Positions 1,734-35,040 are shown, numbered from the stretch's first letter. The stretch: 55,071 nt of DNA from an uncultured Bacilli bacterium (GCA_944372455.1 CALVZF010000002.1:1-55071); one strand, 5' to 3'. Notes: generated by a model not told the origin, from the sequence alone. A program made the numbers and translations.

Positions 1734-2096
1734 ATGAAAAAAGATAGAGACCTATATTTTGAAAATCAGGGATATTTTGGTAACCCAATGATGGGGCAAC
1801 CTGGATTTCAAACTTCACAAATGTATGCAAATAATAATTTTGGACAAATGCCACCATATATGAATACTATGGGAATGAATATGCCGGGGGGAATGCCTAA
1901 TTATCATAATCAAAATTCATACCCTAATTATGATATGAATTCTATTGAACAAAGAGTACTTAGGCTTGAACGACAAATTAGACGACTAGATTCTAGAGTA
2001 AATAGAATTGAAGCTAAATTAAATCTTGATAATCCTGATTATAAAACCACTGCTGATAATTATCAAATAAATGAAAATAATATGTATATGATGTAA
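1734..2096 (+). CDS. Hypothetical protein: Q/N/M/G/P-rich N-terminal half plus a C-terminal Arg-rich coiled coil
   Basis: RBS AAAGGAG lies upstream. The N-terminal half is low-complexity (GQPGFQTSQMYANNNFGQMPPYMNTMGMNMPGGMPNYHNQNSYPNY). It is followed by the heptad-like segment EQRVLRLERQIRRLDSRVNRIEAKL. Confidence 0.5.
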   Translation: MKKDRDLYFENQGYFGNPMMGQPGFQTSQMYANNNFGQMPPYMNTMGMNMPGGMPNYHNQNSYPNYDMNSIEQRVLRLERQIRRLDSRVNRIEAKLNLDNPDYKTTADNYQINENNMYMM

Positions 2097-2120
2097 AAAA
2101 CCGCTATATAAAGCGTTTTT

Positions 2121-2741
2121 TTAATGTATTTTTTCAATAAATTTATTGATTAAAAAGGATTTCTTGGCTTTATTTTCTATTAAATATAAAATACTAAAAA
2201 TTATAGAACCTATAAATGCCATTATCATATCTGTCATTGTATCATCTACTCCAGTGGTAAGAACTTTTTGAGCATCTTTACTAAAAATATTATCATTAAT
2301 AAATTCAAAAAATTCCCATAAAGCAGCTATACTAAGCGTAACTGAGATTATAAACAAAATATTTACCCATAATGGATTTTGTTTAAGACATTTTGATTTA
2401 ATTAATATAATAATAGCTAATATTGAAGTCATAATACCACTTATACCATGCATCAATTTATCGTATATACTAATTTTGTAATAAAAATTTAATATAGTAC
2501 CTAAAAAATGTGCGAAAAAAATAAAAATTAGATAAACAAATATTATTTCTTCTTCTATCTTTTCTTTTAAAAATAAATTAATTAAATATGGTAATAGCAT
2601 GACAGGAGTAATAGATAAGATTATTAAATTTTTATATATTCCTTTCTCATGGTTTCCAAAAAATAAAAATAGGATTGAAAATATAGCTACAAAAATTATT
2701 ATAAAAATATTTATTTTTTTAATTAGATTATTATTTTTCAT
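2121..2741 (-). CDS. Polytopic membrane protein (possibly YjdF/DUF2238-like)
   Basis: Several hydrophobic helices. ATG 2741 follows GGAGGT, whereas the track start at 2789 lacks an RBS. The family assignment is only an impression from the DKLMHGISG segment. Confidence 0.45.
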   Translation of the reverse strand: MKNNNLIKKINIFIIIFVAIFSILFLFFGNHEKGIYKNLIILSITPVMLLPYLINLFLKEKIEEEIIFVYLIFIFFAHFLGTILNFYYKISIYDKLMHGISGIMTSILAIIILIKSKCLKQNPLWVNILFIISVTLSIAALWEFFEFINDNIFSKDAQKVLTTGVDDTMTDMIMAFIGSIIFSILYLIENKAKKSFLINKFIEKIH

Positions 2742-2799
2742 AAAATTACCTCCATATATTATATTAATTAAAAAATGATTATATATCAAAAAAGAGTTT

Positions 2800-3432
2800 T
2801 TAATCTTTAATTTGAATTCCTAAAATTGTTGATAAAATAATTGCTTGAAAACTGTCTACAATTACCCCTTTTAAATCTTCTATACGTATTTTTATTTCAT
2901 TTATTTGACAGGTAGATAAATCAATATTTTTAAGGGGTGTATTTATAAATTCTGTACCTTTAAAATTAACATTATTAAAATTGATAGTTTTTAATTTTGT
3001 TTCATTTAAACTAGCTAATTCTAAATCTGAATTAAAAATATTGGAATTAGTAATTTTAGAATAAGAAAAATTAATATATTTACTTTTACAATTTTTTATC
3101 TGTACATCTTTTAGTGTTGAACTACTTAAATCCATTCCTAACATTTTACAATTTTCAAATATTGTTCTATAAATTATACTATCACTCATATCTTGATTTG
3201 AAAAGTCTGGGTTAATAAATAAAACATCTAAAAGCGTCATTTTTTGCATATTACAATTAACAAATTTAACATTTTCAAAAATACATTCATTAAATTCTAT
3301 AGATTTAAAATCTAAATTTTTAATTTCCGTATTAGCAAATTTGCATCTATAAATAGTATCGTTTGTTTTTATTTCATCATATATATTGCACTCTCTTAAA
3401 TCTAGATTAGAAAATTTTGGCTCTACACTCAT
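2800..3432 (-). CDS. Pentapeptide-repeat protein
   Basis: Long runs of A(D/N)LXX-type pentapeptides (NLDFKSIEFNECIFENVKFVNCNMQKMTLLDVLF...). ATG 3432 has GGTGAAAG upstream. Confidence 0.8.
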   Translation of the reverse strand: MSVEPKFSNLDLRECNIYDEIKTNDTIYRCKFANTEIKNLDFKSIEFNECIFENVKFVNCNMQKMTLLDVLFINPDFSNQDMSDSIIYRTIFENCKMLGMDLSSSTLKDVQIKNCKSKYINFSYSKITNSNIFNSDLELASLNETKLKTINFNNVNFKGTEFINTPLKNIDLSTCQINEIKIRIEDLKGVIVDSFQAIILSTILGIQIKD

Positions 3433-3516
3433 ATCTTTCACCACTTTTATTAAATTATAACACAAAAATTATAATTTACTTTTAGTTTTTAAAATAATAT
3501 GGTATTATATATTTAT

Positions 3517-3590
3517 GCCGCAATAGTATAGTGGTATTACGAGGCCATGGTAAGGCTTTAATCGGTGTTCAATTCACCGTTGCGGCACCA
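3517..3590 (+). tRNA. tRNA-Thr (anticodon GGU)
   Basis: Hand-folded cloverleaf. Acceptor GCCGCAA/TTGCGGC, anticodon stem AGGCC/GGCTT with loop AT-GGT-AA, T arm CGGTG-TTCAATT-CACCG, encoded ACCA 3' end. Confidence 0.9.
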
Positions 3591-3816
3591 TTGGGAAATC
3601 TGCTTGAACTTATGAGCTTTATATATATTTTAAGGTAGGACTATATTGGTTCTACATTTTATTTATATATTTTGACAAAATGTCAAAATATATAGGGAGT
3701 TAGAGGTTTTGCACTCAAAATTTTTATACTGAAAAGCATTGGTTTTTTATTTCCCAAAATCAAAAAAAAATCATTTTTGGGAAATAATATGATATAATGT
3801 TATTGGAGGACTTATT

Positions 3817-5019
3817 ATGAAGCTAATAAAAAGAACTGATTATTTAGAGAAATTAATAAATACAATGAATACACCAGACATAAAAGTTATAACTGGTGTT
3901 CGTCGTGCTGGTAAATCAAAACTTTTAGAAGAATTCAAAAAATATATTATAAAGAATGACAAAGATTATAATATAATACATATTAATTACAATTTAACTA
4001 AGTATGAGAATATCAATGAATATCATAAATTAATAGAATATGTTGAGAAAAATTATAAAGATGATAAACAAAATTATTTATTAATAGATGAGGTTCAAAT
4101 GTGTGATGGTTTTGAAAAAGCAATTAATAATTTTCACGCTGAAGAAAAATATGATATTTATATTACTGGCTCTAATGCTTTTTTAATGAGTAGTGATTTG
4201 GCTACACTTTTTACTGGAAGAACATTTGAAATAAAAGTTTATCCATTTTCATATAAAGAATATTTAGAATATTATAATAAAGAAAACAATGAAAAAGCAT
4301 TTGATAGTTATGTTTATGAAGGTGGATTATCAGGCTCTTATCTATATAAAGAAAATGATGAAAAATATAATTATGTAAATGATATTTATAATACTCTTAT
4401 AAAAAGAGATATTTGTAATAAATATAAAATAAAAAAAGAACACTTATTAGATATGATTAACGATTTTCTAATGGACAATATATCAAATTTAACATCAGTT
4501 AGAAATATATCTGATTCTTTAACAAATAACAAAGATAAAATCAATCATAAAACAGTTAGTTTATATATAAAATATTTATGTAATGCCTTTTTATTTTATA
4601 AAATAAGAAGATATGATATTCAGGGTAAAAGGTATCTATTATCTCAAGATAAATATTATTTGGTAGATCAATCTTTTAAGTTCTCAAAATTGGGAACAAA
4701 AAATATTAATTATGGAAGAGTGTATGAAAATATAATAGCAATAGAACTGCTTAGAAGAGGATATGAGGTTTATGTTGGAACTTTATACAAAAAAGAAATA
4801 GATTTTGTAGCTACAAAAAGAAATGAAAAAGTTTATATTCAAGTATCAAGTGATATTGGAGATGATTTTGAAAATAAAACATTTAGAAGAGAAGTAGATC
4901 CTTTATTAAAAATAAAAGATGCATATCCTAAAATATTAATTGCTAGAACACATCATGATATGTATACATATGAGGGTATTCAAATAATAGATATTAAAGA
5001 TTGGCTTATTAAAAATTAG
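3817..5019 (+). CDS. AAA-family ATPase with a C-terminal DUF4143-like nuclease-fold domain
   Basis: Walker A-like ITGVRRAGKSKLL and Walker B LLIDEVQ. The C-terminal GYEVYVG..KEIDFV segment is typical of the AAA_14/DUF4143 family. RBS GGAGGA. Confidence 0.7.
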   Translation: MKLIKRTDYLEKLINTMNTPDIKVITGVRRAGKSKLLEEFKKYIIKNDKDYNIIHINYNLTKYENINEYHKLIEYVEKNYKDDKQNYLLIDEVQMCDGFEKAINNFHAEEKYDIYITGSNAFLMSSDLATLFTGRTFEIKVYPFSYKEYLEYYNKENNEKAFDSYVYEGGLSGSYLYKENDEKYNYVNDIYNTLIKRDICNKYKIKKEHLLDMINDFLMDNISNLTSVRNISDSLTNNKDKINHKTVSLYIKYLCNAFLFYKIRRYDIQGKRYLLSQDKYYLVDQSFKFSKLGTKNINYGRVYENIIAIELLRRGYEVYVGTLYKKEIDFVATKRNEKVYIQVSSDIGDDFENKTFRREVDPLLKIKDAYPKILIARTHHDMYTYEGIQIIDIKDWLIKN

Positions 5020-5193
5020 AATAAAATAATGAAAAAGTTTAAAAACCGTAAACTGTTAATATATTTTGGTTCGAGATACCTTATTTAAGGCACTATATGG
5101 ATAATTACTCGAACTTATAAAAGTTTGAGTTTTTAAATGTATTTATTTTTCATTTTAGCATATAATACATATAATAATATAAATATAAAAGAC

Positions 5194-5222
5194 TTGACGT
5201 ACATTAAAAAGTACGTTATAAT
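5194..5222 (+). promoter_or_regulatory. Sigma-A-type promoter with an embedded palindromic operator upstream of yefM-yoeB
   Basis: TTGACG (5194-5199), a 17-nt spacer, then TATAAT (5217-5222). The spacer carries the inverted repeat ACGTAC-N8-GTACGT. GTAC-core palindromes are the known operator type for YefM-YoeB. Confidence 0.55.
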
Positions 5223-5240
5223 GTAACTGAGGTGAAAAAT

Positions 5241-5495
5241 ATGAATACCATAAACATAACTAATGCTAGACAAAATCTATTTCAATTAGTTTCTGACGTA
5301 AATAAAGGATTTAATCCAGTCAACATAATCAACAATAAAGGTGAAAATGCTATATTGCTATCGGAAAGTGATTGGAGAGATATAGAAGAAACGATTTATT
5401 TAAACTCTATACCTGGCTTTGTAGAATCTATCAATGAAGCTAGGAAAGAAGATAAAAATAAATGTAGTATTTATAAAAAAGGTGAAGAATGGTAG
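5241..5495 (+). CDS. yefM: Phd/YefM-family antitoxin
   Basis: MNTINITNARQNLFQLV...ILLSESDWRDIEETIYL is a classical YefM N-terminal domain. RBS GAGGTG. Its stop overlaps the toxin start (ATGGTAG). Confidence 0.85.
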   Translation: MNTINITNARQNLFQLVSDVNKGFNPVNIINNKGENAILLSESDWRDIEETIYLNSIPGFVESINEARKEDKNKCSIYKKGEEW

Positions 5496-5761
5496 AATAC
5501 AAAATAATATTTTCTAAATTTGCTGATAAAGATAAAAAATTACTAAAGCAAGCTGGACTTGAAAATAAAACAAAAGAACTATTAGATTTAATAGCAATAA
5601 ATCCTTATCAAACACCACCGACATATGAAAAGTTAAAAGGAAACTTAAATGGTCTTTGTTCTAGAAGAATAAGTTATCAACATAGACTAGTGTATGAAAT
5701 AGATGAAAATAAAAAAGAAATATTTATTTTAAGGATGTGGACACATTATGATAAATTATAA
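5489..5761 (+). CDS. yoeB: YoeB/Txe-family mRNA interferase toxin
   Basis: KLKGNLNGLCSRRISYQHRLVYEIDENKKEIFILRMWTHY matches the conserved YoeB/Txe C-terminal core. Translationally coupled to the antitoxin. Confidence 0.85.
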   Translation: MVEYKIIFSKFADKDKKLLKQAGLENKTKELLDLIAINPYQTPPTYEKLKGNLNGLCSRRISYQHRLVYEIDENKKEIFILRMWTHYDKL

Positions 5762-6014
5762 TATTCTTTTAGAAATTAACCTTAATAGAAATTTCTAAAC
5801 TTGTACTACTACGACACCAGATTGATTATTACTAGAACTTTTCGATTTCATATACTAAAATGCACAATATATCCAAAATATTGTGTGTTTTTAATTTTGA
5901 TATAATTTTTATAGATAAATCTTAATGAAATGAAATATTATTGGAAATATAGAAAATATGATAAAATTAATATATAAAGAATAAAAAGAAAAATATCAGT
6001 TTAGGAGGATGAAA

Positions 6015-7391: not shown

Positions 7392-8414
7392 TTAACGTTT
7401 TACAAATAAACATTTTACAGTTTGAATACCTCCAATTATAACAAATAATAAAGGTATAATTATCCAAAAACCAAGTGATTTAATTGTTTCAATAAAAGAT
7501 GAAGCAGTTCCATATTGAACTAATATAATTCCTATACCAATTATTAAAAATGCTAATCCCAAATAAGTTCCTATAACATCAATTTTAAATCTATCAAAAG
7601 CACCACGAATATGCAATGCACCTAATACAAAGGCAAGTCCACCTAATGTGAAGAAACCTCCAAAAAATATTAAAAAGTTACTACTGTTTGTTCCTACTAA
7701 AATAGCTTCTTTTGGGTTATCAGGGTTATATTTAACTTTTCTAACACTATTTTTCTCTGGAATACTACCTGTTCCATAATTAGTTGAAACATTATATTTT
7801 TTTCCTTTTACTTCATATACATATGATAATTTATAGGTTACTCCATCCCTATCACGATTATAAATTTCATAATCATTAAAATATCCATTCGTTGTAAGAT
7901 AATCTTTAGAAATTTTACTCAATCTGTAAGTATCTTTTATTCCAATAACCAAAAGTGTAATTCCAATTATTAAAACTATTGAAATTAAAAATACAGAAAT
8001 TATTATTTTAAAATTAAAATTAAAATTTAATTTCTTATTTTTTGGGATACTTTTTTTATTTATACCAAATAATGATTTTCTAACTATACTAATTCCTGCT
8101 ATCCAAAAAGGAATAGAAAATAATAAATATAAATACAATTCCTTTTTAATGCTATAATAGGAGACAAAAAATAAAAATCCAAACCAAAATAATAAGAATC
8201 CACAAATATATAATTTCTTAAAAAAATTTGCAAATTTTTCTTTTTCTAAGATTAAACTTATATTTTGCAAAACTATTGAAATTCCACAAATTATAAAAGG
8301 AATAAAAACTATTTTAAATATTATATTATTATTTTTAAATAGTAAAGCTATAAGTATAAAGGTCATTAGTATTGCATATATTAATCTACTTATAAAAATA
8401 CTTTTATTTTTCAT
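7392..8414 (-). CDS. Membrane protein with a central DUF3592-like domain
   Basis: Multiple TM helices flank GVTYKLSYVYEVKGKKYNVSTNYGTGSIPEKNSVRKVKYNPDNPKEAIL, a DUF3592-type beta domain. RBS GGGAGGA. Confidence 0.55.
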   Translation of the reverse strand: MKNKSIFISRLIYAILMTFILIALLFKNNNIIFKIVFIPFIICGISIVLQNISLILEKEKFANFFKKLYICGFLLFWFGFLFFVSYYSIKKELYLYLLFSIPFWIAGISIVRKSLFGINKKSIPKNKKLNFNFNFKIIISVFLISIVLIIGITLLVIGIKDTYRLSKISKDYLTTNGYFNDYEIYNRDRDGVTYKLSYVYEVKGKKYNVSTNYGTGSIPEKNSVRKVKYNPDNPKEAILVGTNSSNFLIFFGGFFTLGGLAFVLGALHIRGAFDRFKIDVIGTYLGLAFLIIGIGIILVQYGTASSFIETIKSLGFWIIIPLLFVIIGGIQTVKCLFVKR

Positions 8415-12229: not shown

Positions 12230-12811
12230 ATGGATTCCTCATTAAAAAGTGATGAAATAGAGTTAAATCCAACATTAAAAGAAGGAGATACTGGTAACTA
12301 TGTTATAATTTTACAGGCAAAATTAAAAGTTTTGGGATATTACGATCTTAGTATAACAGGTAGTTTTGATAATTATACTAAAGATGCTGTTGTTAAATTT
12401 CAAAAAGCTAATGATATTAGTCCAACCGGAATTGTAAATTCCGAGTCTTGGTTAAAATTATACGAATTAACTAGTCAAAGAGAAAGTGCCTATAATATAA
12501 AACAGACAAAACCTACATTAAAACTTGGTAGTACTGGAATATATGTTGTAGAACTTCAAACTCTTTTGAAAGATTTACTTTATTATAATGGTCCAATAGA
12601 TGGAAATTTTGATACAACTACTCAAACAGCCGTTAAATCTTTTCAAACTAATAACAGATTAACTTCTGATGGTATAGTAGGAAGAAATACTTGGAGTGCC
12701 CTTGAAACTCTTTATACTCCATTAGCGATTTGTAATGGTGAAAATAACGGTGAAAATCAAACTTATACAGTCGTTTCAGGGGATACAAATTTTATGGGGA
12801 ATAATGGGTAA
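12230..12811 (+). CDS. 5' segment of an interrupted gene: two PG_binding_1 domains plus the first 8 codons of a LysM domain, then 8 element-encoded codons and a stop
   Basis: RBS AGGAGG. Two PG_binding_1 domains are present: GDTGNYVIILQAKLKVLGYY..GSFDNYTKDAVVKFQKANDISPTGIV and GSTGIYVVELQTLLKDLLYY..GNFDTTTQTAVKSFQTNNRLTSDGIV. The ORF ends ..QTYTVVSGDT|NFMGNNG*, so the LysM consensus YxVxxGDTLW breaks exactly at the element junction. Confidence 0.8.
   Translation: MDSSLKSDEIELNPTLKEGDTGNYVIILQAKLKVLGYYDLSITGSFDNYTKDAVVKFQKANDISPTGIVNSESWLKLYELTSQRESAYNIKQTKPTLKLGSTGIYVVELQTLLKDLLYYNGPIDGNFDTTTQTAVKSFQTNNRLTSDGIVGRNTWSALETLYTPLAICNGENNGENQTYTVVSGDTNFMGNNG
12766..12793. other. attL junction (chromosomal half-site, GG core, element half-site)
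   Basis: tacagtcgtttca-GG-ggatacaaatttt. The right arm is the inverted partner of the arm at 16164..16176 (see findings). Confidence 0.65.
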
Positions 12812-12869
12812 ATTTATTGATTTATTTAGAAAAAAGTCTATAATATAAAACAAGAAAGGAGATTTGTTA

Positions 12870-13229
12870 ATGAATGAAACTTTTGATGTAGGAAACCCAA
12901 CAAAAGAAAATATCGACTTTGCTTTTAAAAATTTAATATTTTATGTTACAGCTTCAACTCAATTAGATATTTACAAAGAACAAAAAAAGAATTTTGAAAA
13001 AGTATTAGTCGAAATTAATACGATTTTAGCAACATATGTGAATAAAGAAAGTCTAGTATCTATAGATGAAGAAAAATTGCAAAATATAAAATTTGATTTA
13101 ATTGATTTAGATACTGAAACAAAATCTTTAAAATCTTATTTTGCAGAATGGTCTTTGTTGTGGTTAGAGGCAATTATTTCTTTAAGAATGTCAGAAATTA
13201 AAATGGAAGGTGTTAATAATGGCAGATAG
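12870..13229 (+). CDS. Element cargo: hypothetical alpha-helical protein
   Basis: RBS AAGGAGA lies 7 nt before ATG 12870. No recognisable motif. Confidence 0.45.
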   Translation: MNETFDVGNPTKENIDFAFKNLIFYVTASTQLDIYKEQKKNFEKVLVEINTILATYVNKESLVSIDEEKLQNIKFDLIDLDTETKSLKSYFAEWSLLWLEAIISLRMSEIKMEGVNNGR

Positions 13230-13800
13230 AGATAAGTATGGAAATTATGTAAATGATAAAGGGGTTACTATAAAGGTTAATACAGATAAAAATGGTAATG
13301 ATCATATTAGTTTTTATGGCAGTGAAGTAGATAAACCACATGATGCGGCACATGTTAATGTAAATTATGATAAAGGATCATGGAGTTCTACAACACATGG
13401 ACCTGATAAAAGTGATACAAGTTCAGGATCAGGTGGTTGTTATTTAACTTCAGCTTGTATGAAATATTTTCAAGAAAAATTTGATGATAATTGTTATGAA
13501 TTAACAGTACTAAGATGGTTTAGAGATAATTTTGTTTCAAAAGAAGATATACAACATTACTATGAAGTAGCACCAATTATTGTTGAAACAATTAATAAAG
13601 AAGAAAAATCTGATATTATTTATGATTATATTTACGATAATATAGTAGATTATTGTGTTGAACAAATTGAACAAGGAAACTATGAGACAGCATATAACAG
13701 ATATAAAAATAGTGTTTTAGTATTAGAAGAACAATTTGCAAAACCAGCATTAACAGATAGATTTGTAAAAACTTTAAAATTAAAAACTAATAATCAGTAA
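13219..13800 (+). CDS. Element cargo: hypothetical protein with a conserved-looking Cys motif (GGCYLTSAC...DDNCYELTVLRWFRD)
   Basis: RBS GGAAGGTG precedes ATG 13219, and the gene overlaps the previous ORF by 11 nt. The CY[LI]T[ST]AC..C[YE]EL..LR.FRD pattern is one I have seen in uncharacterised phage and bacterial proteins. No function is assigned. Confidence 0.45.
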   Translation: MADRDKYGNYVNDKGVTIKVNTDKNGNDHISFYGSEVDKPHDAAHVNVNYDKGSWSSTTHGPDKSDTSSGSGGCYLTSACMKYFQEKFDDNCYELTVLRWFRDNFVSKEDIQHYYEVAPIIVETINKEEKSDIIYDYIYDNIVDYCVEQIEQGNYETAYNRYKNSVLVLEEQFAKPALTDRFVKTLKLKTNNQ

Positions 13801-13805
13801 AAATT

Positions 13806-13853
13806 AATCATCCTATAAAATTTAGTGAAAACTAGAAATTAGGATGATTTTTT
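13806..13853 (+). terminator. Candidate intrinsic terminator after the element cargo genes
   Basis: AATCATCCT (13806-13814) pairs with AGGATGATT (13841-13849) and is followed by TTTT. The loop is long (26 nt), hence the moderate confidence. Confidence 0.4.
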
Positions 13854-14125
13854 GTGCTATAAATTATTGTTAATATTAGACTTATCCTATATAGCATCCT
13901 ACTTTGTAGGATGAATTTCGTAAGTACGAAATAAGCATGGTGCATATACAAGCCCTTATTTCATAAGGAAAAGTGAGTATATATGCACCATTTTCTTATC
14001 CTGCTATTCAATATTTTAATAGATTCTTAACTATTTTAGGATGATAGATAAAATCTTCTATGCTTTATGACTTGACTCTTTTAATAATTGGAGCTACCAT
14101 GCACCATGTGAAGGAGATGATGTGA

Positions 14126-14275
14126 ATGAAAAGAATTAATTTTTATTTACCAGAGGAGTTATTTGAAAGAATTAAATTACTCCCAAATTAGTATAACATT
14201 TCTATGACTAAATTAATGAAAGAATTATTAGAAATTGGTTATATAGATATGTTAGATACACGAAAAAATAAATAA
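14126..14275 (+). pseudogene. Ribbon-helix-helix (CopG/Arc-like) gene with an in-frame TAG at codon 22
   Basis: RBS AAGGAGA, then MKRINFYLPEELFERIKLLPN-TAG(14189-14191)-YNISMTKLMKELLEIGYIDMLDTRKNK*. The beta-strand then helix-helix pattern continues across the stop. Confidence 0.5.
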
Positions 14276-14420
14276 TAAAGTAGAGAGGTTTGGTGATGAA
14301 TATGATAATAAAAATAATGGTGGTTTATGATAGTAAGTAATATTATTAGGTATGCAAAAACCATACCAAGTAATATTACAAAAATTATAACCATAGAATT
14401 AATTGGGGGTATTAAACTCT

Positions 14421-14600
14421 ATGGTTAAATACAAAGTTAATTTAAAGTTTAAAGAAAGCGGAAAATCTTTAAATGAAATAATAACTGAAGTATTAAAACT
14501 TGAAATAATAAAGCAATTTATGAAGACTTGCAATAATTTGAAAGTAGAGCTACCATGTAATCGTACTCATTATTCCCAAAATGGAAGGAGTTATAATTGA
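14421..14600 (+). CDS. Small protein (59 aa) translationally coupled to the serine recombinase; candidate accessory, regulator or directionality factor
   Basis: GGGGGT lies 10 nt before ATG 14421. The product is MVKYKVNLKFKESGKSLNEIITEVLKLEIIKQF.... The TGA stop (14598-14600) overlaps the recombinase ATG (14600-14602). Confidence 0.45.
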   Translation: MVKYKVNLKFKESGKSLNEIITEVLKLEIIKQFMKTCNNLKVELPCNRTHYSQNGRSYN

Positions 14601-16165
14601 TGGTTGGGAATAATAGTTTTAAAGTAGGATTATATATAAGATTATCAAGAGATGATGGAAATATTGAATCAGATAGTATTATTAGTCAAAGAAGTTTATT
14701 AAATCAATATGTTAAAGAAAATAATTATGTAATAGTAGATGAATATGTAGATGATGGATTTTCTGGAACTAATTTTGATAGACCAGCTTTTAAAAGAATG
14801 ATTAAAGATATTGAAATGGGTAAAATCAATATGATAATAACAAAAGATATGTCAAGATTAGGCAGAGATTATATAGGTACTGGTGAATTAATTGAAAAGT
14901 ATTTTCCAAATAATAATATTAGGTATATTGCAATTAACGATGGAATAGATACTTTTATTGATAATACAAATAATGATATTGCACCATTTAAAGCAATTAT
15001 GAATGATATGTATGCTAAAGATATTTCTAAAAAAATCAAAAGTAGTCTTCATTCAAGAATGAAAGATGGATTATATGTATCTGGTAGATGCTCTTTTGGT
15101 TATATGAAAGATCCAAATAATAAAAATCATTTAGTTGTAAATGAAGAACAAGCAGAAATTATTAAATTAATATTTGATTTAGCACTTAAAGGTAATACTT
15201 ACCACTATATAGCACAATATCTTACCGAAAGAAAAATTAAAACTCCGGCATCTTATTATAATTATGTTTGGAATACTAAATGTATAAATGCAAATTGTAT
15301 TTCACAAGAATATGGAGTATGGGTAGATACCACTATAAAAGCAATTCTTACTAATCCAATATATGTAGGAGATACAGTTCAAGGTAAGACTAAAAAGATT
15401 AATTATAAATTGAAAAAAACAGTTAAAAATAAGCCCAATGATTTTATAATAGTAGAAAATACGCATGAAGCAATCATAGATAGAGATACTTTTAATTATG
15501 TTCAAACACTTTTACCAAAAAATGTTAAAAGACCAGAGAAAAAAAGATTTTACCTACTTGATGGACTTTTATATTGTGGAGATTGCAAGCATCGTATAAC
15601 TGTTAGGTATCAAACTAAAACTGGTAAAAGTTATACTACTTGTAATTATTATAGAACATATTCAAAGTATCATGTATGTACAACTCATACAAATAACTAT
15701 GAAACATTAGAAAACGTTGTTTTAGATAATATCAGAGAAGTGTGTAAAAGTTATTTAGATAAGAGTAAGATAAAAGATTCTATTGGTAATATAGAGTTTG
15801 AAGACAATAGTTTAAAGATTAAAAAGCAAATTGAAAGTTTGGAACTTACTAATAATAAATTAACTGAAAGTCTAGATAAAACATATATGGATAGATTAAA
15901 GGGAATAATTGATGAAGAACAATATATAAGAATAAGTGAAAACCTAAAGCAAGAAATAGAAAGTAATAAATCAAGCATTGATAATCTCAAGAATGAACAA
16001 ATAGAAGAAAATAAAATAGACAATAAACAAATAGAAAAATATATAAATGAATTTTTATCATTAAATAATCTAACTAGAGAATTAATAATTAATTTAGTTG
16101 AGAAGATCTACATCTATCAAGATAAACGGGTAGATATTATATTTATATTTAAAAATGCTACATAA
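14600..16165 (+). CDS. Large serine recombinase (resolvase catalytic domain, recombinase domain, zinc ribbon and coiled coil)
   Basis: RBS GGAAGGAG. Motifs: VGLYIRLSRDDG..SDSIISQRSLL (catalytic Ser region), DDGFSGTNFDRPAFKRMI, ITKDMSRLGRDY, Cys cluster CGDCKHR..C..C, and a C-terminal heptad-rich segment. Confidence 0.9.
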   Translation: MVGNNSFKVGLYIRLSRDDGNIESDSIISQRSLLNQYVKENNYVIVDEYVDDGFSGTNFDRPAFKRMIKDIEMGKINMIITKDMSRLGRDYIGTGELIEKYFPNNNIRYIAINDGIDTFIDNTNNDIAPFKAIMNDMYAKDISKKIKSSLHSRMKDGLYVSGRCSFGYMKDPNNKNHLVVNEEQAEIIKLIFDLALKGNTYHYIAQYLTERKIKTPASYYNYVWNTKCINANCISQEYGVWVDTTIKAILTNPIYVGDTVQGKTKKINYKLKKTVKNKPNDFIIVENTHEAIIDRDTFNYVQTLLPKNVKRPEKKRFYLLDGLLYCGDCKHRITVRYQTKTGKSYTTCNYYRTYSKYHVCTTHTNNYETLENVVLDNIREVCKSYLDKSKIKDSIGNIEFEDNSLKIKKQIESLELTNNKLTESLDKTYMDRLKGIIDEEQYIRISENLKQEIESNKSSIDNLKNEQIEENKIDNKQIEKYINEFLSLNNLTRELIINLVEKIYIYQDKRVDIIFIFKNAT

Positions 16166-16191
16166 AAATTGTATCTGGAGATACTCTTTGG
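16164..16191. other. attR junction (element half-site, GG core, chromosomal half-site)
   Basis: aaaaattgtatct-GG-agatactctttgg. The left arm is the inverted partner of 12781..12793. Confidence 0.65.
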
Positions 16192-16626
16192 AAGATAGCT
16201 CAAAAATTTAATACTACTGTAGATGAAATAAAAAGTTTAAATAATCTTACTAGTAATATAATTACAATAGGTCAAAAACTATTAATACCAAGTTCAGATA
16301 ATAATATTATTCCACCAAGTAATAATATTACATATACAGTAGTTAAAGGAGATACTTTATGGAAATTATCTCAAAGATTTAATACTACTGTAGATGCTAT
16401 AAAAAAACTTAATAACTTAATGAATAACAATTTAAGTATTGGACAAAAATTACTAATTCCAACAAATAATCAAAATATAACAAATTATGTAGTAGTTAGA
16501 GGAGATACTTTATGGAGCTTAGCTAGAAAATTTAATACTACAGTAAGTGAAATAAAAAAGTTGAATAATCTTACTAGTGATAACTTAAGTATTGGACAAA
16601 AATTATTAATATCTCAAAATTATTAA
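16179..16626 (+). CDS. 3' segment of the interrupted gene: the rest of LysM 1 plus LysM 2 and 3. No start codon or RBS of its own
   Basis: The frame is open from 16153. It reads ..(IVSG)DTLWKIAQKFNTTVDEIKSLNNLTSNIITIGQKLLIP, YTVVKGDTLWKLSQRFNTTVDAIKKLNNL..IGQKLLIP and YVVVRGDTLWSLARKFNTTVSEIKKLNNL..IGQKLLIS. The repeats are also similar at nucleotide level, with a 153-171 nt period. The track ORF 16420..16626 is only the part after the first internal Met. Confidence 0.8.
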
Positions 16627-27870: not shown

Positions 27871-28581
27871 TTATCCAGTAATAATTGTGACAATAATAGG
27901 TCCTAAAACAATTAATAACATTAGTGGTATAAAAAAGATAACTGATAAAATACTAATTTTAATTGGAAGTTTACCTATTTGTCCTCTAATACTTTGAATT
28001 CTTTTATCTGCTAAAAAATCAATTTGATTATACATTGTATCAATAATATTACCACCAAAAATATTAGTTTGACTAATATTTAAAATAATATTGTTAATAT
28101 TATCAGATGGTATTCTTTTTCTCATGTCATCTAAAGCTTCATCTAAACTTTTACTGTAATTCATTTCATTTAAAGTTTTTTTGAATTCGTTAGATAACTC
28201 ACTATCAATATTATCACAAGTAATTTCTAAAGCACTTTTTAAATCTCTACCCGTTTCAACAGATAAAGTTAAAACTTCAAAAAAGTTTACTGCTTCAGCT
28301 TCAAGCTTGCTAATTCGCTTTTTAATTCTATAATCAATTACTATATAATAAATTCCCAAGTAATAAAGTACACTCATAAGAGGAGCATAAATATAACCAT
28401 AATCGGGAACTAAATAAAGTAATACAAAAAATAATATTATTGTAGTAATAAGTCTAATATTTAAAAATACTATAGGATCAATTTTATTATATATACCTAA
28501 CATTTCTACTTTACTCTTAGTTTTTTCAATGGACTTTTTAGTATATACTTTACGCGCTAAAGGAAATTCTTTTCTCATCAT
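27871..28581 (-). CDS. tadC: TadC-like platform protein (single T2SS-F domain)
   Basis: A T2SSF-type helical domain (FFEVLTLSVETGRDLKSALE...SLDEALDDM) between TM segments. ATGA overlap with tadB. Confidence 0.7.
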   Translation of the reverse strand: MMRKEFPLARKVYTKKSIEKTKSKVEMLGIYNKIDPIVFLNIRLITTIILFFVLLYLVPDYGYIYAPLMSVLYYLGIYYIVIDYRIKKRISKLEAEAVNFFEVLTLSVETGRDLKSALEITCDNIDSELSNEFKKTLNEMNYSKSLDEALDDMRKRIPSDNINNIILNISQTNIFGGNIIDTMYNQIDFLADKRIQSIRGQIGKLPIKISILSVIFFIPLMLLIVLGPIIVTIITG

Positions 28582-29591
28582 TACACCTTAATTCTCATTG
28601 TTTTTTTAACAAAATATACATAAAGTACAAATATAATTATAATTAGTCCAGTGATAACTAGTCCTATTTCTGTAGTATATAAAGGAGTAAAGTAACTTGG
28701 ATTTAAGAAGAAAATTATAAGAAAAATTATAAATGGAGCACTTACTAATACTTTAAACATAATTTCAGAAGAAGCAGTTAAAGTTTTCATTTCGTTTTTT
28801 AATTTTCTTCTATTAAAGAAAGATTTTTCTATTGAAGAAAATACTTTAACAATATCTCCCCCAGTTTTATTTAAAATGGTAAGAGAAGCTGTTATATATT
28901 TAACATCCTCAGTATTAATTCTTTTAGCAAATCTTTCAAAAACAATATCTAATTCTAATCCAAAAGAAATATCAATATACATTCTATTAAATTCTTCACC
29001 TATAGGTCCAGATAACTCATGTTTTACTATTTCAATAGCTTGCATAGTAGTACGTCCACTTTTGAAAGCACTATTCAATATAATTATAGCTTTTAAAATA
29101 TCTTCATCAATTTTTTTCTTTCTTTTATAGTTTTTAAAAAATAAAACGATATCAATGGTAAAGAAGCCACCTACTAAAATTATAAATATTTGTAGTATAC
29201 TAAAATTTCTATATTGTAATACGTTAAATAAAAGAGTAACTAAAAATAGAAAAATAGTTAAAACAAGTTTTGAAGAGACATAATCCATAGGATCTACTAC
29301 ATTTTTTTTGGAATATGGAATATATTTATTATATTTAGAAGCTATTTTTTTAAGAAAATAAGAATGGTTAAATATTTTATTTAAAGCTTTAATTAATTTA
29401 TTATATAAATTTATTCCTTTATCAAAAAAAGATTCAACATTATTATTTAAGGGTTCAACAGAATATCTTCCAATTCGCTTTTCTAAGTTTGCAGCATGCC
29501 TAAATAGTAATACTTGTATTAAAATTATTATAAGTATTACTATTATTATTATCTGCAATATAAATAAAGGGATATTAATGTTATTTCCCAT
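28581..29591 (-). CDS. tadB: TadB-like platform protein (single T2SS-F domain)
   Basis: ILNSAFKSGRTTMQAIEIV..GPIGEEF...FERFAKRI with flanking TM helices. ATG 29591 follows AGGTGA, and the GTG at 29600 lies within the RBS. Confidence 0.7.
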   Translation of the reverse strand: MGNNINIPLFILQIIIIVILIIILIQVLLFRHAANLEKRIGRYSVEPLNNNVESFFDKGINLYNKLIKALNKIFNHSYFLKKIASKYNKYIPYSKKNVVDPMDYVSSKLVLTIFLFLVTLLFNVLQYRNFSILQIFIILVGGFFTIDIVLFFKNYKRKKKIDEDILKAIIILNSAFKSGRTTMQAIEIVKHELSGPIGEEFNRMYIDISFGLELDIVFERFAKRINTEDVKYITASLTILNKTGGDIVKVFSSIEKSFFNRRKLKNEMKTLTASSEIMFKVLVSAPFIIFLIIFFLNPSYFTPLYTTEIGLVITGLIIIIFVLYVYFVKKTMRIKV

Positions 29592-29600
29592 AAGTATCAC

Positions 29601-30929
29601 CTACTTACCAAAAATATCTTTTAAGTTTTTGATTCCTTTTGAAGTAATTTTTTCATATACTTTTGGAATATAATTATAAAGAATAAACTCTCCATCTACT
29701 TCTCCGTTTGAAGTAAGACCTTTTTGACGGAATGCAAAGATTTCTTGAAGTTTTAAAACTCCATTTTTAATTTCAGTAATCTCGCTAATAGAAGTTATTT
29801 TTCTTCTACCATCTCCAAGTCTTTCAATATGTACTACTAAATCAATTGCATTAAATATATATTCTCTAATCGCACTTACTGGTATATCTAATCCTGCCAT
29901 TAATACCATTGATTCTAATCTATTTAAAGCATCTATTGGAGAATTAGCGTGCATTGTAGTTAATGAACCATCATGACCAGTATTCATAGCTTGAAGCATA
30001 TCAAAAGCTTCTTTTCCTCTTACTTCTCCTACAATTATTCTATCTGGTCTCATTCTAAGAGAGTTAATTACTAAATCTCTAATAGTAATTTCTCCTTGAT
30101 TTTCATAGTTTTCTGGACGAGTTTCAAGACTAATAACATGATTTTGTTCCAGTTTTAATTCAGCAGCATCTTCAATTGTGATTATTCTTTGATCATCTGG
30201 AATAAAACTAGATAAAATATTTAGAAGTGTAGTTTTACCAGCACCAGTTCCTCCACTAACTATTATATTTAAATTAGCTTCTACGCAAGCTTCTAAAAAT
30301 CTAGCCATATATGGAGTTAAGGTACCACTACGTAAATAATCATCAATACTAGTCATGTTTTTTCTAAATTTACGAATAGTTAAAACTGGACCTTTTAAAG
30401 ATAATGGTGGAATAATTGCATTAATTCTAGAGCCATCTGGTAGTCTTGAATCTACCATTGGATTTGAAGCATCAATCGTTCTACCAAGAGGTTGAACCAT
30501 TCTTTGTATAGTTCTTAAAATATGATCATTATTAATAAAAGAAACCGAATCATCTTTAACTACTTTCCCATTAATTTCAATATATATTTCATTTGGTCCA
30601 TTTACCATTATTTCAGTAATATTCCCATCTTCTAGTAACTCAGTAATTGGTCCATAACCATTAATTTCATTTTCAATTAAATTGTAAATATGGGCACGTG
30701 CTAAATTAGATAGATCGTATCCTTCCAATGTTTTATCTATTTCATCATTAATATAATCTTTTAAAATTTTATCTTTGGGAATTTTATCATCAATAATATT
30801 TTGAATAATTTGATTTCTCAAACTATCAAGTAAAACTTTGTTTGGAAAAACTTCATAATCAGATAAAATACTTATTTTATTTTGTTTAGGCTTTATATCA
30901 AAAGCTTCTGTTAAAGTTTTTTTAGGCAT
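29601..30929 (-). CDS. cpaF: CpaF/TadA-family secretion ATPase
   Basis: Walker A GGTGAGKTTLLN, Asp box IITIEDAAEL, Walker B RIIVGEVRG, His box TGHDGSLTTMHAN. Confidence 0.9.
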   Translation of the reverse strand: MPKKTLTEAFDIKPKQNKISILSDYEVFPNKVLLDSLRNQIIQNIIDDKIPKDKILKDYINDEIDKTLEGYDLSNLARAHIYNLIENEINGYGPITELLEDGNITEIMVNGPNEIYIEINGKVVKDDSVSFINNDHILRTIQRMVQPLGRTIDASNPMVDSRLPDGSRINAIIPPLSLKGPVLTIRKFRKNMTSIDDYLRSGTLTPYMARFLEACVEANLNIIVSGGTGAGKTTLLNILSSFIPDDQRIITIEDAAELKLEQNHVISLETRPENYENQGEITIRDLVINSLRMRPDRIIVGEVRGKEAFDMLQAMNTGHDGSLTTMHANSPIDALNRLESMVLMAGLDIPVSAIREYIFNAIDLVVHIERLGDGRRKITSISEITEIKNGVLKLQEIFAFRQKGLTSNGEVDGEFILYNYIPKVYEKITSKGIKNLKDIFGK

Positions 30930-31699
30930 TATTTCACCTTCTTATCTTTTATTAGGTCAAGTGCCATATTTTTAAAATTTTGAAAATCTTTTCTTTTGGC
31001 TTTTTGAATTTTTTTATCTAATAGTAAAATTTTTCCATTAATTGTATAATTATCTATATCTTTAATATAAAAATTTTTAGAAATAGTATAATCAATATTA
31101 GAGCCAATTACGGTTTTAATATCAAATGTAGTAAAGTAATCTTTTCCAGTATCTCTAGAATTATTGTACAATATTTTATAGTTATTAATTTGATTATCAT
31201 TAAAAATAGAAATTATTGATTTAGTGTTTTTAAGATCTACTGGATCATTAGTTACTACAAACAAAGTATTATAAGCACTATCCATAATAGTAAGATTTAT
31301 TTCAGTTAAAATATGGGTAGTATCTATTAAAATCACTTCATATTTACTTTCTACATTGTATAAAAGTAAATCAATATATTTAGCTTCTACTTTCATGGCT
31401 TGTCTTGGGTCTTTAGGTGCGCATATTACATCAATACCTTCAATGTAATTATATATATAATCATCAATATGCATAAATCTATTATTCATCATGTCATCAA
31501 CTACATTATAAACAGTCTTTTTATTTTTTAAATTTAAAGCAAGAGCGAGTGCTCCACCATATAGATCTAAATCTATTATTAAAACTTTTTTACCTAATAA
31601 GTGATAAGTAGCAGCAAGATTAAGCAATACTGTAGTTTTTCCTACTCCACCTTTTGTAGAAGTTATACAAATTGTTTTGGCTTTTTTAATTTTAGGCAT
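30929..31699 (-). CDS. ParA/MinD-type ATPase (CpaE/TadZ-like)
   Basis: Deviant Walker A TSTKGGVGKTT followed by IIDLDLYGG. Confidence 0.75.
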   Translation of the reverse strand: MPKIKKAKTICITSTKGGVGKTTVLLNLAATYHLLGKKVLIIDLDLYGGALALALNLKNKKTVYNVVDDMMNNRFMHIDDYIYNYIEGIDVICAPKDPRQAMKVEAKYIDLLLYNVESKYEVILIDTTHILTEINLTIMDSAYNTLFVVTNDPVDLKNTKSIISIFNDNQINNYKILYNNSRDTGKDYFTTFDIKTVIGSNIDYTISKNFYIKDIDNYTINGKILLLDKKIQKAKRKDFQNFKNMALDLIKDKKVK

Positions 31700-31710
31700 G
31701 TAATCACCTT

Positions 31711-32094
31711 CTAACCCTTTTTTAATTCTTTTTTATTATCTAATATTGTACCTTCATACTTAGATACAATTTTATATTCTTTTATTCCTATTATTTTTCC
31801 AAAAGTACTTTCTATATTTTTATGAAAATTAATATTAATTTGATTAGTACCAATTTTAATATTATCAATAATTATTTTATCATCATTTTTAAGTATTAAC
31901 TCTTTTATTTCACTTTCTAAATTCTTATTTTCAAGTTTTTCTAATGATAAAGAAATAACCATCTTATTAATTTCATCTAATTTATTTTTATTTTGATACA
32001 TAGTAGTTATATCTATTACAGTAGCCATAATAATTATTAATAATGGTAAAAATACTACAAACACTATTAAAGTTTGACCTTTATTATTTATCAT
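31711..32094 (-). CDS. TadE/TadG-like pseudopilin-type protein
   Basis: The N-terminus MINNKGQTLIVFVVFLPLLIIIMATVIDI fits the TadE/G-like N-terminal pattern (G then hydrophobic, ..P.L.....D). Confidence 0.55.
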   Translation of the reverse strand: MINNKGQTLIVFVVFLPLLIIIMATVIDITTMYQNKNKLDEINKMVISLSLEKLENKNLESEIKELILKNDDKIIIDNIKIGTNQININFHKNIESTFGKIIGIKEYKIVSKYEGTILDNKKELKKG

Positions 32095-32431
32095 ATACTA
32101 CCCTACTCACCTTTATCTTGTATGGACTATCTAATAACAAATTTAATCCAGGAGTTATGATATCTACTGAAGTGAATAGTCTTACCTCTTTATACTTACC
32201 ATTAGTAACTATTCTATAAGTAACTTTCTTACTAGTATCTTGATTTATAAACGAAATAATTTCTTCTTCTGTTTCATTATTTTGTATCATATTAATAACA
32301 TCATTTAATTTACTTTCAAGCTTACTTTTGTTATATATTATTACTCCGAAATCAATAGTGGCAAAAAGTATCATAATTAGTACTGGTAAAACAATAACAA
32401 ATTCTACTAAGGCTTGACCTTTTTGTTTCAC
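32084..32431 (-). CDS. TadE-like (pseudo)pilin with a class III signal, KG|QALVEF
   Basis: GTG 32431 lies 10 nt after AGGGG and gives MKQKG|QALVEFVIVLPVLIMILFATIDFG, with Gly at -1 and Glu at +5. The track start at 32440 has no spacing from the RBS. Confidence 0.6.
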   Translation of the reverse strand: MKQKGQALVEFVIVLPVLIMILFATIDFGVIIYNKSKLESKLNDVINMIQNNETEEEIISFINQDTSKKVTYRIVTNGKYKEVRLFTSVDIITPGLNLLLDSPYKIKVSRVVYDK

Positions 32432-32489
32432 TAATATCACGCCCCTATTATATCTAGTATATCAGAAAATTTGAGATTTTTAAATATTT

Positions 32490-33251
32490 TTATACAAGAT
32501 AATTTATTAAATCTAATAATGATACACTAGTAAATTTTAAAAGTAGTAAAATAATTGCAGTTATAGAAAGGAATGGTCCAAAAGGGACAATATTATCTTT
32601 TTTTCTTATCATTGTAATAATAGCATAAGGAAGCGCAATAAAAGATGCCAAAAATATTATTACAATAGCTGTTTTAATATGAAAAACCAAGCCAAAAAAG
32701 AAAAATAATTTTATATCTCCCCCACCTAATGATTCAGTTTTAAAAATAAAATCTCCAATCCATTTTATTAAATACATAAAACAAAAACAAAGAACGCCAT
32801 AAAATATAGCTAATAAAAATGAGAAAACTCCATTTAATATTAAAGTTTCTATAAGTATTAGAATGCTTCCACATATTAAAACTTCATCTGAAATGATCAT
32901 GTATTCAATATCGCTAATTATTACTATTATTAAAATTGAAACAAACGTAATAGGTATTATTACGTTTACACTTAATCCAAAAACTATATAACACAAACTA
33001 AATAGAATTCCTGTTAATAATTCATATATTGGATATTTAATTGATATATGTGTTTTACAATTTCTACATTTTCCCAATTGAATTAGATATGAAATAACCG
33101 GGATAAGCTCATACCATTTTAATTTTTTATTACACTTCTCACAATGAGATGGAGGATTAATAATAGATTTTCCTTCTGGAAGTCTTAAAGCAACTACTTG
33201 AAAGAAAGATCCAAAAACTAACCCAAATATAAAGAAAATTAAACAAACCAT
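32490..33251 (-). CDS. pilD: Prepilin peptidase (A24 family, PilD/ComC-like, with an N-terminal Cys4 domain)
   Basis: Motifs CEKCNKKLKWYELIPVISYL..GKCRNCK, and the conserved Asp regions ISD and GGGDIKLF. ATG 33251 follows GGGGG. Confidence 0.85.
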   Translation of the reverse strand: MVCLIFFIFGLVFGSFFQVVALRLPEGKSIINPPSHCEKCNKKLKWYELIPVISYLIQLGKCRNCKTHISIKYPIYELLTGILFSLCYIVFGLSVNVIIPITFVSILIIVIISDIEYMIISDEVLICGSILILIETLILNGVFSFLLAIFYGVLCFCFMYLIKWIGDFIFKTESLGGGDIKLFFFFGLVFHIKTAIVIIFLASFIALPYAIITMIRKKDNIVPFGPFLSITAIILLLLKFTSVSLLDLINYLV

Positions 33252-33261
33252 AAAATACCCC

Positions 33262-34917: not shown

Positions 34918-35040
34918 AAAATGCCCCTCTCCTATTCTAACTATTAAATAGTATATCATATTAGTTAATTTTTTTAAATAAATTTTTAGAAAGTAACTTA
35001 ATTTTACATAAAACATATAATGTGGTAAGGGGGATTACTT

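Follow-up and report, generated by a model that had tools for sequence, protein, structure and literature searches.

Does the gene for a large serine recombinase that lies inside an interrupted LysM gene of an uncultured Bacilli bacterium belong to a mobile element, and, if so, where are the ends of that element and what sequence does its enzyme choose as a target? The locus is part of a stretch of 55,071 nt (GCA_944372455.1 CALVZF010000002.1:1-55071), here called the window, and all coordinates are positions counted from the first letter of this whole stretch. A preliminary description of the window had read two attachment-site junctions, attL and attR, around a GG crossover core, and the sequences of both junctions are exactly as written there. 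We studied the element and its family by sequence comparison, and conclude, with a probability of roughly 85%, that the junctions are the true ends of a 3.4-kb mobile cassette placed by a serine recombinase at a GG within the LysM gene. The features on which this conclusion depends are as follows.

12766..12793, plus strand: attL, consisting of the host B arm, the GG (12779..12780) and the element P' arm; TACAGTCGTTTCA-GG-GGATACAAATTTT

16164..16191, plus strand: attR, consisting of the element P arm, the GG (16177..16178) and the host B' arm; AAAAATTGTATCT-GG-AGATACTCTTTGG

12781..16178, plus strand: the integrated element, 3,398 bp; the limits 12779..16176 are equivalent owing to the 2-nt GG

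12781..12811, plus strand: conserved left end of the element with the P' arm, GGATACAAATTTTATGGGGAATAATGGG; in-frame stop TAA at 12809..12811

12230..12780, plus strand: 5' part of the host gene (codons 1-183 and the first two bases, GG, of the Gly184 codon), with two PG_binding_1 domains and the start of LysM repeat 1

16179..16626, plus strand: 3' part of the host gene, encoding the remainder of LysM repeat 1, then repeats 2 and 3

Joining 12230..12780 to 16179..16626 gave a 999-nt open reading frame (ORF) for a protein of 332 aa with two PG_binding_1 and three LysM domains. The rejoined protein aligned end to end with intact homologues of 325-335 aa (61-70% identity), and the alignment was gapless at the join. 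The limits 12781..16178 that had been proposed for the element were borne out in this way, since removal of the 3,398 bp restores an in-frame ORF, and excision was shown in silico to rebuild an intact gene. The host B' arm of attR, aGATACTCTTTGG, codes for G-D-T-L-W. As found, the interrupted host ORF extends to 12811; its tail is encoded by the element, and the protein ends in ...GDTNFMGNNG*. The "truncated" LysM gene in the window is thus really an interrupted gene.

The form of the two sites is that expected for a large serine recombinase. When the attP site was rebuilt from the element arms, the inverted-repeat arms around the GG matched in 11 of 13 positions, as had been claimed, and in 14/16 and 18/25 positions of longer arms. 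Symmetry of 11/13 was reached by 24 of 200,000 random GG-position pairs in the AT-rich window, which corresponds to a chance of 1.2e-4. The rebuilt attB is far less symmetric, and our recomputed values (5/13 and 6/16) agree with the claim made for it. The rebuilt joint of the circular element reads CATAAAAATTGTATCT-GG-GGATACAAATTTTATG, which is the 14/16 inverted repeat. The last codons and the stop of the recombinase gene fall inside the P arm.

14600..16165, plus strand (ORF 14597/14600..16165): large serine recombinase, 521 aa (522 aa from 14597), with Resolvase, Recombinase and Zn_ribbon_recom domains

These three domains were matched with E = 7e-22 (PF00239), E = 6e-24 (PF07508) and E = 5e-11 (PF13408), and a domain search detected no DUF4368 domain in the protein. 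The catalytic-serine motif YIRLSRDD corresponds to YERLSRDD in TnpX. Of the solved structures, the catalytic domain of TnpX matched best (E = 1.5e-28; about 55% identical over residues 9-118), and the best annotated full-length relatives are TndX proteins (36% identity over 97% of the length), so that TndX and TnpX appear from these alignments to be the nearest annotated relatives. In NCBIfam the best score was that of CcrB (E = 1.6e-34), at 120 bits against a cut-off of 900, and CcrC and XisF were also far under their cut-offs. The preliminary description had called the rebuilt site a serine-integrase attP. The class of the enzyme and the form of the site support this, but among characterised enzymes the closest to it are not phage integrases; they are TndX and TnpX, recombinases of transposons. 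Because of this relationship, and because the 3.4-kb element has no phage genes, it is preferable to treat "attP" as the joint at which a circular cassette is closed. A prophage was ruled out by size (3,398 bp, and 2.3-7.5 kb in the family) and by gene content: PHROGs recognised on the element the integrase, weakly an Arc-like repressor and, at borderline strength, a family whose function is unknown, with no phage structural or replication genes.

We searched for relatives in a scan of one genome per species, which found >500 stretches encoding relatives; 80 loci were kept, in which the recombinase is 76-89% identical to that of the window, and at least 80 species-representative genomes carry recombinase relatives in this range. 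The loci came mostly from gut metagenome-assembled genomes labelled "uncultured Bacilli/Tenericutes/Erysipelotrichaceae", together with Eubacterium sp. CAG:180 and others. At most loci the recombinase ends in ...ACA TAA, followed by AAAnTGTATCw-GG and then by host codons for G-D-T/S-L-W/Y-x-I-A, which is the start of a LysM domain. Both junctions could be read in 49 loci, where attL consists of host codons for Y-x-V-x-x, the GG, and then nGATACAATTTTTATGGGGAATAATGAG. The attL sites were first sought with a loose pattern, and false sites in L016, L017, L044, L070 and L080 were removed by a stricter one. The search pattern for the 49 junction pairs itself demanded GG, whereas the attR listing used no pattern; the core was GG at every junction read, in that listing and in all 49 pairs. 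Element lengths ranged from 2.3 to 7.5 kb, plus one 1.6-kb remnant without recombinase, and flanks joined at the GG gave long in-frame LysM ORFs wherever enough flank was present.

The asymmetry between the two rebuilt sites holds across these 49 loci, with 12-15 of 16 symmetric positions in attP and 0-8 of 16 in attB. All four inner half-sites in the window had been described as resembling GTATCY. Three of them do so throughout the family, scoring 5-6 of 6 in 48, 48 and 41 of the 49 sites and never below 4, but the left half of attB does not, scoring 0-3 of 6 in 44 of 49. The 4/6 score of this half-site in the window (gtttca) is, judged against the family, a chance resemblance. Likewise, GATAC at positions 2-6 from the core is found in three of the four half-sites and is lacking from the left half of attB. 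At the left end of the element, positions +9..+25 are conserved in 44 loci, well past the 16-nt symmetric arm. This left end always gives an in-frame stop, and the truncated host proteins end in ...GDTIFMGNNE* (44 loci).

Where in the junction are the strands exchanged? In the window attL and attR have GG-n-GATAC in common, that is, a shared GATAC at +2..+6 beyond the GG, and the window alone cannot distinguish the GG from this GATAC as the exchange site. If exchange took place inside the GATAC, the base after the GG would be host sequence in attL and element sequence in attR, and the rebuilt attP would be 12/13 symmetric; moreover, in L021 and L047 both junctions have host-like sequence in common as far as +11. 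The centre of the attP dyad is the GG on either account, however, and lies between the two G's in every locus. The conservation profile across loci is informative here. In attR, positions -20..-1 are near-invariant apart from -8 and, in part, from -7, -1 and the wobble base of three of the last recombinase codons, and from +1 rightward there is a 3-nt periodicity with T or C at +4, the wobble position of the Asp codon; attL is the mirror image. Because conservation in attR and attL switches there, the exchange is placed between -1 and +4, and the T/C variation at +4 of attR puts it to the left of that position.

The base at +1 discriminates further. Its composition in attR is that of the Gly wobble base in 145 LysM motifs of these loci that carry no insertion (p = 0.30), so that it fits host codon usage. 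At +1 of attL, by contrast, 47% of the bases are G, compared with 10% in the control motifs (Fisher p = 2e-7). These statistics imply that +1 is host sequence in attR and element sequence in attL. The same follows from sites that are occupied in one lineage and empty in a close relative. The protein obtained by joining the L071 flanks shares 97% identity with P0060, which is encoded on contig L081, and the empty site of L081 aligned without a gap to the L071 flanks joined at the GG (302 nt, 93%). This empty site reads aaaaagGGaGATAC / aaaaagGGaGATACTTTATAC. At -1 it has g, as attL does, where attR has t; at +1 it has a, as attR does, where attL has t. In a second pair, L086/L014 (85% nt identity), the empty site again agrees with attR at +1, and a third pair, L082/L063, was uninformative on the exchange point. 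The first two pairs put the exchange between -1 and +1. The absence of a target duplication, also part of the preliminary description, is supported by the gapless join in the window and by the gapless L071/L081 alignment.

Taken together, dyad symmetry, the conservation profile, the +1 base and the empty sites confine the exchange to the GG, as had been proposed for the window. The empty sites and the statistics at +1 led us to reject a crossover inside the GATAC, which we regard as highly improbable. The GG is the only shared junction sequence that the mechanism demands; the extra shared GATAC arises because the right arm of the element resembles the LysM codons GAT-AC. For the window copy, cleavage at the GG is inferred from these relatives, and L037, the locus closest to it by cargo, likewise has "g" after the GG in attL. 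The two accounts predict different products. Exchange at the GG would give attB as GTCGTTTCAGGAGATACTCTTTGG, with "a" after the GG, and the circle joint as TTGTATCTGGGGATACAAATTTT, with "g" after the GG; an empty site in the species of the window would then read TCAGGAGATACT and its circle joint TCTGGGGATACA. Exchange elsewhere would give, for example, attB as TCAGGGGATACT, and exchange in the GATAC would leave GGG in attB and GGA in the joint.

We then asked whether the target is this one gene or something more general. Insertions in the family lie in the first to fifth LysM repeat of proteins that have 1-6 repeats and varied N-terminal parts. This variety of genes and repeats implies that the target is LysM-motif coding sequence generally, not the single gene occupied in the window. 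On one contig (L054, 1..6668) two elements, the first with its attR at 132 and the second at 1795..5847, occupy different LysM genes in a stretch of 6 kb, and therefore more than one copy per genome occurs. The recombinase gene points in the direction of the host gene in all 49 elements, as expected from the non-palindromic GG and the asymmetric attB. The host gene in the window itself retains two unoccupied motifs downstream of the element.

16348..16362, plus strand: unoccupied LysM motif in repeat 2, GGAGATACTTTATGG; potential secondary target

16501..16515, plus strand: unoccupied LysM motif in repeat 3, GGAGATACTTTATGG; potential secondary target

The motif GGAGATACTTTATGG in repeats 2 and 3 is a near-match to the occupied site, yet both copies are empty.

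Sequence divergence points to recent movement of these elements. Element DNA is 83-88% identical at the nucleotide level across species, whereas the flanks are at most 72% identical or unalignable. In the window the right 1.9-2.4 kb of the element is 83-88% identical to elements of other species with unalignable flanks, and the elements of the window and L037 are 84-88% identical but lie in different LysM genes. The L021 element has 24% GC within flanks of 45-47% GC, and in L071 and L081 two closely related lineages differ in whether the site is occupied. By these comparisons, the elements have spread horizontally, and recently, across gut-bacterial species. The tandem arrangement in L032 (2781..9177) consists of an autonomous element and, after it, a 1.6-kb derivative without the recombinase; the derivative resembles the window cargo in that it carries homologues of the 193-aa cargo ORF and of orf59, both described below. 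P-GG-P' joints are seen in L032 and in L087 (136..179), and a similar joint in L051 (about 4030..4070) reads TG. The L087 joint, from a metagenome, was considered as a clean circle and rejected, since about 20 nt of the recombinase 3' end is present upstream and nothing more of it, and it looks like the joint of a tandem or remnant.

An in-frame interruption that could be restored without a scar also recalls the domesticated developmental switches, such as skin, SPbeta or gin, that are excised only in a terminally differentiating, sporulating cell. The small conserved ORFs that accompany the serine recombinase recall GirC/GirX of gin, and the orthologue of a neighbouring gene has a weak SpoIID-like match. 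In Bacillus cereus, gin too is of non-phage type and splits a coding sequence, which is made whole when a serine recombinase and a small factor excise the element; the gin donor site has inverted-repeat form, with a dinucleotide at its centre (PMC5595907). However, skin, SPbeta, gin and vfbin each occupy one specific sporulation gene, whereas the family studied here hits the first to fifth LysM repeats of many non-orthologous genes, with a generic PG_binding_1/LysM gene as the host in the window. The paired insertions of L054, the recent horizontal spread, and the presence of restriction-modification and abortive-infection (Abi)-type cargo also argue against a switch, as do several host assemblies that each consist of a single contig or chromosome of just 1.2-1.5 Mb. 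No sporulation family was found among 30 window ORFs scanned (of 40 ORFs of at least 150 aa), a result that is not conclusive. A domesticated switch is therefore quite unlikely, and we retain the interpretation of a mobile cassette.

Several points weigh against that interpretation. The crossover of the window copy is placed by homology, with neither an empty site nor a circular joint from its own species. An exact-pattern scan of metagenome contigs for the empty site of this species gave no match, and neither did two patterns for the circular joint in viral contigs. Among 5.8 billion proteins there was no intact allele of the host gene with >70% identity. The left half of attB carries no recognisable recombinase motif. 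At L021 and L047, the 11-13 nt of attL that follow the GG on the right are host-like, which a 2-nt exchange alone does not yield; in L021 (Eubacterium sp. CAG:180) attL and attR share GGCGACACGCTTT (3690..3780 and 7540..7620), with 11 nt of host-like sequence right of the GG, and L047 is a weaker case. The extra sequence in L021 probably comes from gene conversion by a neighbouring LysM repeat. Finally, a small gene of the element, conserved in related elements and encoding a ribbon-helix-helix (RHH) protein, is a pseudogene in the window copy.

14126..14275, plus strand: Arc/RHH-like small gene, 49 codons, with an in-frame TAG at 14189..14191

The TAG is TAC or TTC in intact relatives (L011, L004 and L020), and the consensus of intact copies has a weak match to the Arc-like repressor family phrog_582 (E = 0.0018). 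This stop codon, the departure of the P' arm from the family consensus at +9, the finding that all assemblies of the species found so far have the interrupted gene, and the lack of an intact allele in the protein search noted above would all fit a fossil, that is, a copy with real junctions that is no longer excised or transferred. Yet neither its recombinase nor its orf59 is truncated, both share 89-92% identity with relatives, both arms keep their GATAC cores and 14/16 symmetry, and the RHH gene is also broken in L013 and L021 and may thus be dispensable. We consider an immobile fossil possible but doubtful; the window copy may be partly decayed. In a different sample, a Logan contig (L088, ERR4096322_9617) contains the same truncated host gene and ends about 30 nt past its stop, inside the conserved left end, which is the expected look of an assembly break at a repeated sequence.

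Under the interpretation of a mobile cassette, 12781..16178 would be a small non-phage integrative element moved by its own large serine recombinase, which would join the circular element joint CATAAAAATTGTATCT-GG-GGATACAAATTTTATG to DNA coding for the LysM start T-Y-T-V-V-S-G-D-T-L-W. A recombinase dimer bound to the circular joint would synapse with a dimer on LysM-motif DNA; the four strands would be cut with a 2-nt stagger at the GG, the first two bases of the glycine codon in G-D-T, and the half-sites would rotate before the ends are rejoined. Integration of this kind would be conservative and leave no duplication behind, and on excision the original gene would be recovered unaltered. The circular intermediate is one that we infer. 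Phage-type enzymes and gin need a directionality factor (PMC5595907). On the other hand, TndX was reported, in the title of Wang & Mullany 2000 as cited in PMC3783163, to be required and sufficient for insertion and excision, and reference titles in the same source report that TndX and TnpX act alone. By analogy, the recombinase of the window may insert and excise unaided.

Cassette-like organization, variable cargo and tandem composites are also features of SCCmec and its Ccr enzymes, which differ from the present family in using a CcrA/CcrB pair, where we find a single recombinase, and in targeting orfX/rlmH. Tn5397, a conjugative transposon of Clostridioides difficile, and its enzyme TndX share with the family a 2-nt central crossover, the absence of duplication and a circular joint as donor. 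They differ in the core, which is GG here rather than the GA of TndX, and in size (3.4 kb here against about 21 kb); in addition, the element studied here has no conjugation module, targets a protein-domain motif and encodes an enzyme without DUF4368. Tn4451 and Tn4453, integrative mobilisable elements of Clostridium moved by TnpX, are likewise elements of a few kb that depend on one large serine recombinase, with a different core dinucleotide and target and an enzyme of about 700 aa, compared with 521 aa here. In a large computational survey, Durrant et al. described in a general way "multi-targeting" large serine recombinases, of which one recombinase cluster occurs in many target-gene clusters; TndX-like enzymes were placed in such a clade, and the target motifs of some were noted to be complex (bioRxiv 10.1101/2021.11.05.467528). 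The family described here differs from these in that its target is a long, information-rich motif set by domain conservation, not a product of relaxed specificity, and again in the lack of DUF4368.

What else do these cassettes carry? The conserved core of the family consists of the two ends, a non-cargo module of about 600 nt that includes the RHH gene, orf59 and the recombinase. In addition to the genes already listed, the window element has the following features.

12870..13229 (listed from TTG 12864), plus strand: cargo ORF, 119 aa, ATG start; no family match

13219..13800 (listed from GTG 13210), plus strand: cargo ORF, 193 aa, ATG start; weak CFI-box-CTERM-like domain under the curated cut-off

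13905..14005, plus strand: candidate RNA, a conserved structured segment of about 100 nt in the non-cargo module

14421..14600, plus strand: orf59, 59 aa; its TGA stop overlaps the recombinase ATG (TGATG)

The small orf59 gene is present in 73 of the 80 loci and, judging from the TGATG overlap, is translationally coupled to the recombinase gene. Its family comprises 738 protein clusters; among the 120 listed, nearly all are 59 aa long and without a Pfam domain or descriptive name. An AlphaFold2 model of the protein was poor, a single helix with a predicted local distance difference test (pLDDT) score of 65. The product of orf59 could be a directionality factor or regulator, and we suggest that it or the RHH protein may control direction or expression. 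Upstream of the RHH-orf59-recombinase genes, the consensus for the segment 13905..14005, drawn from nine sequences, is a nested set of hairpins with 40 predicted pairs, nine of them with compensatory changes. Rfam gave no credible match anywhere on the element, this segment included; the segment is a candidate cis-regulatory or small RNA. A scan of the AT-rich element for promoters and terminators gave nothing above shuffled expectation.

The cargo differs between loci and includes DpnII endonuclease, D12 and N6_N4 methyltransferases, AIPR, RhuM, DUF6414, SWIM and UPF0158 (in L018, L023, L044, L068, L006, L025 and others), much of it of restriction-modification or Abi type. In the window, searches of the cargo against PADLOC, PHROGs and NCBIfam gave nothing except the sub-threshold CFI-box-CTERM domain and a borderline PHROG family of unknown function (E = 0.009), the latter for the 119-aa ORF. 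This ORF has a close homologue only in L037 (95%) and a weak partial match in L051 (29% over 93 aa), and homologues of the 193-aa ORF were found in 12 loci. No conjugation or mobilisation ORF was found in the 3.4 kb, the cargo having no such match in Pfam, NCBIfam or PHROGs, and no mobilisation gene or origin of transfer (oriT) was recognised on the element.

These results lead us to favour, if with less assurance than for the junctions themselves, the view that the window holds one copy of a large, undescribed-looking family of minimal cassettes that home to the Y-x-V-x-x-G-D-T-L start of LysM domains and have passed horizontally among gut Bacilli with small genomes, with swappable cargo, a one-sided attB and a private control module made up of the structured segment, the Arc-like gene and the 59-aa ORF, for which the libraries searched hold no matching family. 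The element is of a known kind; its LysM-motif target and its family are not described in the literature searched, in which we found no paper linking LysM targets with large serine recombinases. Homing to a domain motif by widespread minimal cassettes would be the more novel part. If true, the LysM motif gives such elements many redundant, low-cost landing sites per genome, and a conserved domain motif that acts as a landing pad in many copies may account for the movement of small cargo cassettes, some with restriction-modification and Abi-type genes, among gut bacteria with reduced genomes. The family also supplies about 50 natural attB/attP pairs from one enzyme lineage, with a fixed GG core and a one-sided attB, which are useful in work on site recognition by large serine recombinases and in the selection of new orthogonal integrases.

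Elsewhere in the window, a cluster at 27871..35016 on the minus strand encodes a TadA/VirB11-type ATPase, a MinD/ParA-like ATPase and a GspF/PilC-like membrane protein, and looks, in this host with its small genome, like a Tad or type IV pilus-like locus.

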